Origin: Candidatus Acetothermia bacterium | GTDB taxonomy: Bacteria > Bipolaricaulota > Bipolaricaulia > M55B111 | NCBI GenBank assembly: GCA_046543235.1 | Contig: JBKGZT010000007.1 | Span: 1 to 34,159, forward strand | Direction: 5' to 3' | Length of the DNA: 34,159 bases | Part shown: one piece after another, positions 8,715-11,519 of the stretch | Layout: each line of letters begins with the position of its first letter | How positions within the stretch are numbered: position 1 is the stretch's first letter | Made by a program: the position numbers and the translations under genes | Notes under the pieces: generated by a model | What the model was told of the DNA's origin: nothing | Database searches by the model: none | What the model saw: only the letters and a program-made list of their open reading frames with translations

Positions 8715-8780
8715 TAAAAAAATATTTTGTGAAGAGAATCATTAAATTAGAAAACCAACTTAATCAAAGGAGGAGTGAAG

Positions 8781-10322
8781 ATGGCAAATACCTTTAAGGA
8801 ATCAATAGAATCCGAGGGCGATTTTACCATAACGTGGGAGTTAGTGCCTGGTAGGGGGGCAAAGGAGAAGAACCAACAGGAGATATTCGAGCATGCGGAA
8901 GAGGCAACCGGAAGCGACCTGATAGACGGTATATCTCTTACCGATAACCCGAGCGGAAATCCTGCCATTTCTGCCGAATACCTTGGCATGAAGCTAAAGG
9001 AGATGGGGCTGGAGCCGCTGGTTCACTTCACGGCCAAGGACAAAAGCCGGAACGAGATGGAGAGCTTCCTCTACTCCCTGGAGAGGGAGGGCGTGGAAAA
9101 CCTCCTGTTGATGACCGGAGACTACCCGAATCAGGGTTACGAGGGTCAGTCGAAGCCGGTTTTCGATCTTGATTCTACCCACATGCTGGAGTTGGTCAAT
9201 TCGCTGAACGACGGGCTGCAGTATACCGACGACTTCGGGAGGTCGCAGGAGTTGAAGGAAACCCATTTCTTCCCGGGTGCCGTAGTCTCGCCGTTTAAAA
9301 GCGAAGAATCGGAAATCCTGACTCAGTATTACAAGCTGGAAAAGAAAGTCGAGGCTGGAGCGAACTATATAATTACCCAGCTCGGCTACGATGCCCGCAA
9401 GTTTCACGAATTGAAACAGTACGTCGACGATGCAGGACTTGACGTTCCACTGATCGGCAACCTTTACCTGCTTTCTTACGGGGCCAGCAGGGCGATGAAC
9501 AGGGGGGATATTCCGGGCTGTGTCGTTACCGATGACCTGGTCGACGAACTATCCGAAGAAAAGGAAGCCGAGGACGGCGGCAAGCAGGCCAGGCTGATGA
9601 GAGGAGCAAAGATGTACGCCTTCCTCAAGGGAATGGGTTACGACGGCGTCCATATCGGCGGTCACGGTATCGATTACGAGGACGTGGAGTTCGTGGTTAA
9701 CAAAGGCGAGGAGCTAGTATCGGACTGGGAGGAGTTCATTCCGGAGTTCGATTTCCCGATGGAGGACGGGTTCTACTATTACGAGAAGGATCCGGATACG
9801 GGCCTGAACAAGGAGAACCGCTCCGACCTCGCCCCCAGGCCTCGAAAAGGCGTGGTAAACTCCCTCTTCCGGCTGATGCACAACCAGCTCTTCGAACCGA
9901 ACGGCCTCTTCTTTACGCCGATGCGGACCCTGTTGAAGTGGATTGACGGGACCTGGGCCGAGGAACCGTTCCAGGCATTTGAAAGGATAATCAAGACAAT
10001 CACGAACGATTGCCAGGAATGCGGAGACTGTGCTCTAACCGAGATGGCCTACGTCTGTCCGATGTCGCAGTGCCCGAAGGAGCAGAGAAACGGACCCTGC
10101 GGGGGCAGTAGGGATGGAATGTGCGAGGTTTATCCTGAGAAACAATGTGTATACGTTAGAACTTACAACAGACTGAAGGAGTACGGCGATCAGGAACAGC
10201 TGAAGGAACGGGTACCTCCGAATTACTGGGAGCTGAGACATACCTCTTCCTGGCTCAATTACTGGCTCGGACGGGATCACGCTTCCGAAAAAGCGGGAAT
10301 CGAGCCTCCGGAAGAAGGTTAA
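8781..10322 (+). CDS. metF: Methylenetetrahydrofolate reductase: MetF domain fused to a C-terminal MetV-like Cys-rich domain
   Basis: ITWELVPG, LTDNPSG, HFTAKDKSR, LLMTGD, KKVEAGANYIITQLGYD, then CQECGDC...CPMSQCPK..RNGPCGGS..GMCEV....CVY. SD AAGGAGG places the start at ATG 8781. Confidence 0.9.
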   Translation: MANTFKESIESEGDFTITWELVPGRGAKEKNQQEIFEHAEEATGSDLIDGISLTDNPSGNPAISAEYLGMKLKEMGLEPLVHFTAKDKSRNEMESFLYSLEREGVENLLLMTGDYPNQGYEGQSKPVFDLDSTHMLELVNSLNDGLQYTDDFGRSQELKETHFFPGAVVSPFKSEESEILTQYYKLEKKVEAGANYIITQLGYDARKFHELKQYVDDAGLDVPLIGNLYLLSYGASRAMNRGDIPGCVVTDDLVDELSEEKEAEDGGKQARLMRGAKMYAFLKGMGYDGVHIGGHGIDYEDVEFVVNKGEELVSDWEEFIPEFDFPMEDGFYYYEKDPDTGLNKENRSDLAPRPRKGVVNSLFRLMHNQLFEPNGLFFTPMRTLLKWIDGTWAEEPFQAFERIIKTITNDCQECGDCALTEMAYVCPMSQCPKEQRNGPCGGSRDGMCEVYPEKQCVYVRTYNRLKEYGDQEQLKERVPPNYWELRHTSSWLNYWLGRDHASEKAGIEPPEEG

Positions 10323-10350: not shown

Positions 10351-10383
10351 AACTGGCACCCCTGGTACTTCGGGGTGCCAGTT
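10351..10383 (+). terminator. Hairpin downstream of metF-metV (likely terminator)
   Basis: Perfect 12-bp stem AACTGGCACCCC / GGGGTGCCAGTT with a 9-nt loop. The U-tract is weak. Confidence 0.65.
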
Positions 10384-10488
10384 CTAATTGATATCGCTAG
10401 CTATACTGCCGATAATTATCAAAAGAATGAGAGGCTTTACTAAGTGTTAATAAAATAGGGTCTTTTTGGTTGGTGGTGTATTATTTCT

Positions 10489-10964
10489 GGTAACCGTTTG
10501 GTAAAACCGGAGGCGATTTCCCAAGCGTGGAAATCGCCCCTTTCGATCTCGGGTCTCGCTATCCACCTTTCCTTGTTTAACTACGACAAGGAAGGGCACC
10601 GAACCGAGAAAATTCCAGCGATGCAGCGCATATGTCTGACCGATCCAGCACTTACTTCGGTTTCGGTATTGAGTGCGATTATAGGGTTTGATTTACAGCA
10701 TAAACCTTTAGCTGTAAATGTATATTCATCTTCACTATCCGATACTGAAGTAAGTGCTGGAGAGGGATATTACCATAACCGAACGGGATTAAATATTTAT
10801 GCATAATACTCTCTGTAGTGGAAAACACTTCCATAAAGAGAACAGTTTGAGCACGCGAGTCGGAAATTTCTCGGTTCGGGAAGCCCGAAGGTCGAGAACA
10901 AGTCCCACGAAAGGGTGGAACCGTGCCCGCTCGGCCTCCGATGGGATTTTCCTGAACGGTTACC
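10489..10964. mobile_element. MITE-like non-autonomous element (476 bp) with long imperfect terminal inverted repeats
   Basis: Ends GGTAACCGTTTGGTAAAA (left) and GGTAACCGTTCAGGAAAA (right, reverse complement). Subterminal inverted 18-mer 10599-10616/10862-10879 (17/18 identical). Flanks ATTATTTCT / AAAATTTCT (7/9) resemble a decayed target duplication. No transposase ORF. Confidence 0.55.
10644..10761. repeat. Long internal inverted repeat / hairpin within the element
   Basis: TCCAGCACTTACTTC (10644-10658) pairs perfectly with GAAGTAAGTGCTGGA (10747-10761) and extends imperfectly inward. Inner stem ATTTACAGC/GCTGTAAAT (10691-10699/10711-10719). Confidence 0.85.
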
Positions 10965-11066
10965 AAAATTTCTTCGTAAATGGATGACTACTGATTAAGC
11001 TGATTGATTTGTTGCATTACTTGTACTGGGCAAAATTATCCGTGTTTTTATAGAATAGGAGAAAAA

Positions 11067-11519
11067 ATGAGTCAAGAAGACGTCAGGATGATTGATGTAG
11101 GCGACAAGGACGACACGAATCGGGAAGCGGTCGCCGTCGGGTCGATAGAAATGAAGGATGAAACGAGGAAAAAGGTCCTGAACGGTGAACTGGTCAAGGG
11201 TAACGTACTATCCGTCGCCCGGACTGCCGGGATCATGGCGGCCAAAAGGACCTCGGATCTTTTACCTCTGTGTCACCCGTTACCGATCAACAACGTGAAG
11301 GTAGATATAAAGCCCGATACGACAGGGCTCGCGGTCGAAGTTACCGTTAATTACCGCGGCAAGACCGGCGTTGAGATGGAGGCCCTGACGGGCTGTTCAG
11401 TCGCCCTGCTGACGATATACGATATGGTGAAAAACGAGGAGAGGGGGATGGTTGTCAGGGAAGTCAAGCTAACCGAAAAATCGGGAGGTCAAAGTGGCCA
11501 CTGGAAGAGACAACGATAA
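11067..11519 (+). CDS. moaC: Cyclic pyranopterin monophosphate synthase MoaC
   Basis: MIDVGDK, KGNVLSVARTAGIMAAKRTSDLLPLCHP, KTGVEMEALT, TIYDMVK, KSGGQSG. Start ATG 11067 after AGGAG. Confidence 0.95.
   Translation: MSQEDVRMIDVGDKDDTNREAVAVGSIEMKDETRKKVLNGELVKGNVLSVARTAGIMAAKRTSDLLPLCHPLPINNVKVDIKPDTTGLAVEVTVNYRGKTGVEMEALTGCSVALLTIYDMVKNEERGMVVREVKLTEKSGGQSGHWKRQR

Follow-up and report, generated by a model that had tools for sequence, protein, structure and literature searches.

What is the 476-nt non-coding sequence that stands upstream of moaC in this genome: a mobile element, a structured RNA or a switch for the gene downstream? The window analysed here, a stretch of 34,159 nt, belongs to contig C55 of the source genome G000 (1.32 Mb in 97 contigs, 87% complete), and the sequence occupies positions 10489–10964 on the + strand. 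It had been described in the first-pass annotation as a set of nested inverted repeats, and these are real and far above chance level. A repeat search of the window recovered paired arms at 10485–10506/10947–10968 (22 nt, 82% identity), 10599–10616/10862–10879 (18 nt, 94%, the same 17 of 18 positions as reported earlier) and 10644–10666/10739–10761 (23 nt, 91%). When the left arm (10489–10616) was aligned with the reverse complement of the right arm (10862–10964), 78 of 138 columns were identical and the alignment score was 93.5, as compared with 39.6 +/- 6.7 (maximum 65.5) in 2000 shuffles. Both strands are also predicted to fold far more stably than their shuffled counterparts (−201.8 kcal/mol, z −10.3, for the + strand; −192.2 kcal/mol, z −9.0, for the − strand).

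The element is best described as a module A enclosing a module B, all features being given for the + strand. The left arm of A (10489–10592) contains an internal inverted repeat, GGTAACCGTTTG, found in the repeat search, and two local hairpins (10512–10521/10529–10538 and 10566–10576/10586–10596); the right arm (10894–10964) terminates in AACGGTTACC. Module B, also seen in an alignment of 36 copies, spans roughly 300 nt (10593–10893) with invariant blocks and covarying stems. Repeat search and alignment agree on its closing stem, composed of a 5' strand CCGAACCGAGAAAATTCC (10599–10616) and a 3' strand GGAAATTTCTCGGTTCGG (10862–10879), within which lies a variable central hairpin, CCAGCAC...GTGCTGG (10644–10761), a module of its own. 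The 3' strand of the closing stem can alternatively pair with the bases that follow it (10874–10890, TTCGGG AAG CCCGAA), and elsewhere this alternative hairpin changes together with the stem (TCCGGG AAG CCCGGA in other copies).

The setting is the one given in the first-pass annotation, between a metF terminator and moaC: a terminator-like hairpin with 12 perfect base pairs (10351–10383, + strand, repeat search) follows the MTHFR-domain gene, and moaC (11067–11519, + strand; NF006870, 198 bits, above the cut-off) lies downstream, with moaA situated beyond it. A promoter-like site, TTGATA-17-GATAAT (10388–10416, + strand, 10 of 12 positions), is located 72 nt upstream of the element. The gene named metF is a 515-aa ORF (8775–10322) in which the best match spans residues 15–270 and other MTHFR models reach about residue 293; as its NCBIfam matches all fall far under their cut-offs, it represents an unusual long form, and its relatives are found in Halanaerobiales and other anaerobes. 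We also observed a direct repeat, TACTGCCGATAATTATC/TACTGGGCAAAATTATC (13 of 17 positions identical), at 10404–10420 and 11024–11040, i.e. approximately 70 nt beyond either end of the element; its second copy overlaps another promoter-like site (11027–11056).

Neither a protein nor a catalogued RNA accounts for the sequence. The two ORFs crossing it (102 aa on the + strand and 95 aa on the − strand) had no Pfam match, in line with the earlier view that it holds no credible ORF. No Rfam 15 family reached its gathering threshold in the window; at E-values up to 10, only three chance-level matches to microRNA precursors appeared (17–20 bits against thresholds of 88–110; E-values 0.059–1.4).

Further copies, for which the first-pass annotation had recommended a search, proved to be numerous. 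BLAST with the element and a 174-nt mini copy as queries revealed 38 merged loci in G000, 4803 bases in total, including a near-full copy at C18:17562–18009 (81% identity) and several minis of 99, 142 or 150 nt, in which element positions 1–67/83 are joined to 421/441–476 (the 99-nt minis combining 1–67 and 441–476). Of the 194 contig ends of G000, 21 lie in the repeat family (a locus within 60 nt of the end). Matches to the element occurred in every one of the 14 other genus genomes and in 16 of 18 genomes of the family, and were absent from the 22 genomes searched in seven further families of the class. The covariance model R1, built on B, matched the window at 10598–10878 with 188.9 bits; it was searched against 151 genomes of the phylum and was positive in G000 and eight of nine genus genomes, in none of four sister-genus genomes and in none of 137 genomes from other families of the phylum. 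Metagenome contigs supplied 29 loci, apparently all from one lineage and none with an associated gene, and a conserved 25-nt block of B had no exact counterpart in viral contigs. The contigs of four DNA runs break inside the element, with the repeated blocks at 65–150 times the summed depth of the flanks, and no informative joint was seen in them. Clustering of neighbouring genes at 59 loci yielded recurrent ORFs only inside the repeat or as orthologous neighbours; a candidate for cargo within B (L177, with a spacing of 1.6 kb) was rejected, as it consisted of two fragments flanking a LexA-like gene. We found no description of the family in a full-text search of the literature on repeats of Bipolaricaulota/Acetothermia and on IS256-type MITEs, and the main text of a 2024 survey of prokaryotic MITEs (PMC11602168) mentions neither IS256 nor Bipolaricaulota. 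The repeat family appears to be undescribed, and its hosts are salt-lake bacteria of a little-studied candidate phylum, Candidatus Bipolaricaulota.

The better-preserved copies in G000 and its relatives reveal what the window copy has lost. In these, the core, be it A or A+B, is usually enclosed by outer arms of 34 and 41 nt. The arms begin with GATAGTGTAG and carry TGTAAA; one has the sequence GATAGTGTAGCATTTTATGTGTAAAACTAGCTTT, the opposite one AAAGCTATAAATTCATTTTACACAGTTGCTTCTACACTATC. The sequence GGTAACCGTT does open both ends of the window element, as had been noticed earlier; in the 18 copies with recognisable arms, this GG(A/T)AACCGTT repeat is internal to the arms, which makes it a subterminal repeat with the true termini 34–41 nt further out. 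We compared the 8 nt outside each tip in 14 complete outer-arm elements: the two flanks matched at 8/8 positions in seven, at 7/8 in two and at 6/8 or fewer in five, and none of 182 non-self flank pairs used as a control reached 7. Perfect duplications surround L246 and L287 (both 466 nt), which share the A+B core of the window copy, and direct repeats of 8–9 bp were seen by eye at L241 and L248, whose tips are damaged and which are not counted among the 14.

Movement has also left an empty allele. The site of a 172-nt copy (G000:C86:4976–5147), flanked by GTGATTGA/GGGATTGA, is empty in G005, G001, G007 and G013. The flanking genes are 47–82 nt apart in these four genomes, as compared with a distance of 252–280 nt separating the equivalent flank matches of G000, and GG(T/G)GATTGA is present twice in G000 and once in the empty genomes. 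Copies consisting of B or A without IS256-type arms exist as well. No empty site was resolved for such copies: opposite the B-only copy at G011:C136, the spacer of the relatives is much shorter, but divergence of the intergenic DNA prevents the boundaries from being placed.

These data bear directly on the possibility that the sequence is an IS1-like MITE with GGTAACCGTT as its ends and a 9-bp AT-rich target duplication, as the first-pass annotation had suggested. The window itself offers the GG start, and the 9-mers next to the element (10480–10488 and 10965–10973; ATTATTTCT/AAAATTTCT) indeed match at seven of nine positions. However, the duplications of the family measure 8 bp and lie outside the outer arms, with GG(A/T)AACCGTT inside those 34–41-nt arms in intact copies. 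Moreover, at the orthologous locus of G008, G002 and G001, the element is bordered by a T-run on its left and an A-run on its right, which extend the inverted repeat and are inverted, not direct. The 7/9 match seen in G000 hence does not represent a duplication, and both 9-mers were rejected as such. As the autonomous element that matches the family belongs to IS256, not IS1 (see below), we regard an IS1-like origin as highly improbable.

The Mutator-family transposase domain of the IS256 family (PF00872) was present in four of five large genomes of the genus; among other transposase families, PF01610 was found in none of five genomes and PF01609 in one of five. In the sister genome G009, contig C129 carries a 1491-bp insertion sequence (L260 1859 to 369) with an intact 432-aa ORF (PF00872, 383 bits), which starts with GATAGTGTAGCATTAAATGTGTAAAA, ends with ...TTTTACACACTAAACTTGACACAACC and is flanked by the 8-bp repeat GTGAAACA. 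Its end matches the MITE arms, GATAGTGTAGCATTTTATGTGTAAAA, at 24 of 26 positions; the alignment is confined to this end, and the interiors of IS and MITE are unrelated. Among the 19 family genomes, 9 contain homologues of this transposase, which are intact in G009:C129 and G008:C26, truncated at the end of a contig in G004:C56 and fragmentary elsewhere; none was found in G000, at its 87% completeness. We also noted in G000 a solitary sequence (C65:1833–1859) that is 96% (26/27) identical to the G009 IS end and has no transposase near it.

As described in passages of PMC7780238, IS256-family elements generate 8-bp duplications, possess a conserved subterminal TGTAAA in each end, bind their transposase in bipartite fashion within the end itself, over roughly 26–31 bp, and transpose by a copy-out/paste-in route; a duplication length of 8 or 9 bp is stated in a passage of PMC3189936. 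With their terminal inverted repeat of about 26 nt, subterminal TGTAAA and 8-bp duplication, the intact MITEs resemble IS256-family insertion sequences (e.g. ISCth4 and IS256 itself, Mutator-type DDE elements); they differ in having no transposase gene and an interior unrelated to that of the IS, and the window copy is further set apart by its lack of ends. The arms, the TGTAAA motif, the 8-bp duplication and the IS partner together give the family the defining features of an IS256-type MITE. The unusually long bipartite ends that had been postulated in the first-pass annotation, a terminus combined with a more distant protein-binding site, are at most putative binding sites; in the IS256 family, the bipartite site lies within the short end, according to the same passages of PMC7780238.

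The extensive hairpins, whose stems change in sequence and retain their structure, would also be in keeping with a palindromic element of REP/REPIN-like or IS200/IS605 type that a Y1 (HUH) transposase mobilises in single-stranded form. Y1 transposition is not known to generate target duplications, yet 8-bp duplications are present in this family. PF01797 was detected in 3 of 15 genus genomes, with no repeat within the loci around those genes, and PF07282 in none of the 15; a Y1-driven origin thus appears very unlikely.

In our assessment, the 476-nt sequence is probably the core of a non-autonomous MITE, a member of a genus-wide family mobilised in trans by an IS256-family (Mutator-type DDE) transposase, and the window copy an old insertion in the moaC leader. 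The general idea of a MITE-like element mobilised in trans was already contained in the first-pass annotation and gains support from the multiple copies, the 8-bp duplications, the empty C86 sites and the IS256 partner. Points that weigh against this reading are the missing outer arms and duplication of the window copy, the negative search for a transposase homologue in G000 and the mostly fragmentary homologues of the other family genomes, the five complete elements with 6/8 or fewer matching flank positions, and the existence of B-only and A-only copies that lack IS256-type arms. An intact member would consist of three layers, namely the outer arms of 34 and 41 nt, the first 26 nt of which form the IS256-type end (GATAGTGTAG...TGTAAAA), the 8-bp target duplication, and a hairpin-rich core unrelated to the transposase gene, made up of A, which optionally encloses B, and the variable hairpin. 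By analogy with the IS256 family, transposition may proceed by copy-out/paste-in.

The core is modular to an unusual degree: inverted repeats delimit every module, and the relative orientation of the modules varies through flips. Module A (in the window approximately 10489–10592 plus 10894–10964) is a hairpin unit that carries the internal inverted repeat GG(A/T)AACCGTTC and is also found alone, as minis of 99–142 nt. The sequence of its apical stem varies among copies and the pairing is kept (CCACCTTTC/GAAAGGGTGG in the window, CCATGCTTCC/GGAAGCATGG in L127, CTCTTGATTTC/GAAATCAAGAG in L248–L251). Module B (approximately 10593–10893), closed by its 18-bp repeat, occurs alone (L124, L129 and L130), in tandem behind a mini A (L125, L127 and L128) or nested inside A, as in the window, and falls into length classes of 186 and 255–271 nt. 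The central hairpin of B (10644–10761) is placed directly in the apex of A in L240, L245, L252 and L256 and so constitutes a separate module. Among copies with recognisable arms, the core lies one way relative to the arms in 13 of 18 and the other way in 5 of 18; flipping between the 17-bp repeat AGCTTTGGAAACCGTTC is therefore common. Recombination or template switching between repeat arms is the most likely route of such flips, and exchange among copies may have added to the rearrangement of modules.

The history of the window copy can be followed at the moaC leader of related genomes. The metF-like gene, the promoter-like block and moaC are syntenic across the genus, with the block conserved in G007, G001, G002, G003, G008, G009 and G010, and the element is found between this block and moaC in G000, G007, G001 (two contigs), G008, G002 and G003. 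Its state differs among them: the full A+B of G000 corresponds in G007 to an A of the same orientation with a flipped B, in G008 to A+B with a short central hairpin, in G002 to an entirely inverted element, in G003 to a truncated inverted copy and in G001 to an inverted 109-nt mini on contig C20, while contig C4 of the latter genome starts inside the element. The stretch between the metF-like gene and moaC in G009 (C2, L039) is masked and reads N. From these differing states at a syntenic position, we infer that the insertion is old and has since been remodelled; it would be common to most species of the genus and would have lost its arms and duplication. The first-pass annotation had advised looking for an empty metF–moaC site. 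This locus is filled in the six genus genomes just listed, retains only a remnant resembling the left end of A in G010, and yielded no element in the sister-genus genomes G015 and G018; the four genomes with an empty allele described above are those at C86.

The window copy itself exhibits little of the outer layers. Its flanks had no significant similarity to the outer arms (p = 0.39–0.92). All that can be traced is an ATAG motif in the right place: the expected site of the left outer arm (10455–10488, + strand; similarity p = 0.39) starts with ATAGGGT; a recognisable 8-bp duplication is absent. The membership of this copy in the family consequently rests on homology of its core, and, with the outer arms and duplication lost beyond recognition, it is probably immobile now. 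In module B, the G000 moaC copy is 88.1% identical to the C18 copy of its own genome and 82.5% identical to its G007 orthologue, the G007 moaC copy has its best matches at different loci of G001 and G007 (89–90%), and the moaC orthologues of G008 and G002 are near-mutual best matches (90.2%). These identities suggest exchange among copies, or replacement, in some lineages.

The TTGATA-17-GATAAT site, in its conserved block between the terminator-like hairpin and the element, is probably the promoter of the moaC operon. As this conserved promoter-like site is upstream of the element, the element would be part of the moaC leader, and transcription probably yields the window copy as a long hairpin within the 5' leader of moaC. 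At the same locus, B is inverted within A in G007 relative to G000, and the whole element is inverted in G002, G003 and G001, which could point to an inverton, i.e. a DNA switch that regulates moaC by flipping between inverted repeats. However, the modules are present at dozens of unrelated loci, the flips were observed between species and not within a population, and no promoter-like site was found inside the element; we give a regulatory switch very little credence compared with an old, remodelled MITE insertion.

More serious is the question of whether module B, perhaps together with A, represents a functional structured RNA, be it a ribozyme, a regulatory RNA specific to the lineage or a selfish RNA riding in the MITE, whose hairpins and blocks are kept by selection on the RNA. 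The 36 distinct copies of B that were aligned, taken from 13 genomes, contain long invariant blocks, e.g. GAAAATTCCAGCGA and GTTTGAGCACG, which are predicted to be unpaired; since the copies were chosen via two conserved anchor motifs, these motifs themselves are invariant simply through the way in which the copies were picked. Of 47 predicted pairs, 16 have pair-keeping changes on both sides. In the closing stem, the outer five pairs vary (columns 18–22, part of an 11-bp helix), four of them with changes on both sides, one further pair has a both-side change and the remaining pairs are invariant. The variable pairs comprise 104 G-U as compared with 17 A-C cells, with minority G-U in 16 pairs as compared with A-C in 9, a count biased by the prediction of the structure from the + strand. 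In addition, the blocks of B are retained at the moaC locus despite the decay of the arms.

On the other hand, the covariance model detects B only within the genus, and B is antisense in 14 and sense in 7 cases among co-oriented neighbours and flips at one locus between close species. The consensus energy is nearly equal on both strands (−46.3 and −43.9), and the element lacks an internal promoter-like site. Compared with Rfam families, it is similarly rich in structure and covarying stems and differs in having no family match at the gathering score. Correction of palindromes by template switching, combined with exchange among copies, can furthermore mimic covariation. We consider a functional RNA in B an unlikely alternative, albeit one to be taken more seriously than the IS1, Y1 and inverton readings.

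The reading as an IS256-type MITE, in turn, leaves one residue, namely the strong conservation of the blocks inside B. These long invariant blocks persist at loci where the arms have decayed, and a purely selfish, neutral relic does not predict such persistence. The core (B, perhaps with A) could conceivably be a new device peculiar to this lineage, acting as structured RNA or as single-strand DNA, e.g. a self-processing or protein-recruiting RNA, which has co-opted IS256-type ends and on which selection outlasts the decay of these ends; we rate this as improbable, on a par with the functional RNA considered above. The invariant blocks are the only part of the family that could prove to be more than ordinary.

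Small, non-coding, multi-copy intergenic elements that form hairpins are well known, among them Correia/NEMIS, ERIC and the pneumococcal BOX, which are often co-transcribed with their neighbours and produce size variants by internal insertion or deletion. The present family shares these general traits; it differs from them in a much longer core (up to about 480 nt), in nested modules that also occur separately and flipped, in its long invariant blocks and in its restriction to a single genus of Candidatus Bipolaricaulota. Overall, the observation is real and for the most part ordinary: a family of IS256-type MITEs whose hairpin core is unusually large, modular and flippable. It explains part of the poor assembly of these genomes, as seen from the contig ends of G000 that fall within the repeat, and the pair of MITE and IS256-family partner is usable for testing which parts of the element the transposase needs. 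Nested hairpin modules that flip, shrink and are exchanged between copies provide a case for the evolution of palindromic repeats. When genomes of this genus are annotated, sequences of this kind in front of genes should not be taken as riboswitches or locus-specific regulators without further evidence.

Two minor observations concern fragments of the core. On two metagenome contigs (L204, at about 2001, and L220, at about 821), only the last roughly 45 nt of B are present, and both copies start at the identical base (GTTTGAGCACGCG) straight after unrelated DNA; either truncation at the 5' end or a join made in assembly could account for them. The spacer that holds the B-only copy at G011:C136 (L226) also contains, about 250 nt further downstream, a lone hairpin of the B-central type (…CAATTGGAGCCTCC…), and a module of this central type hence also exists by itself.
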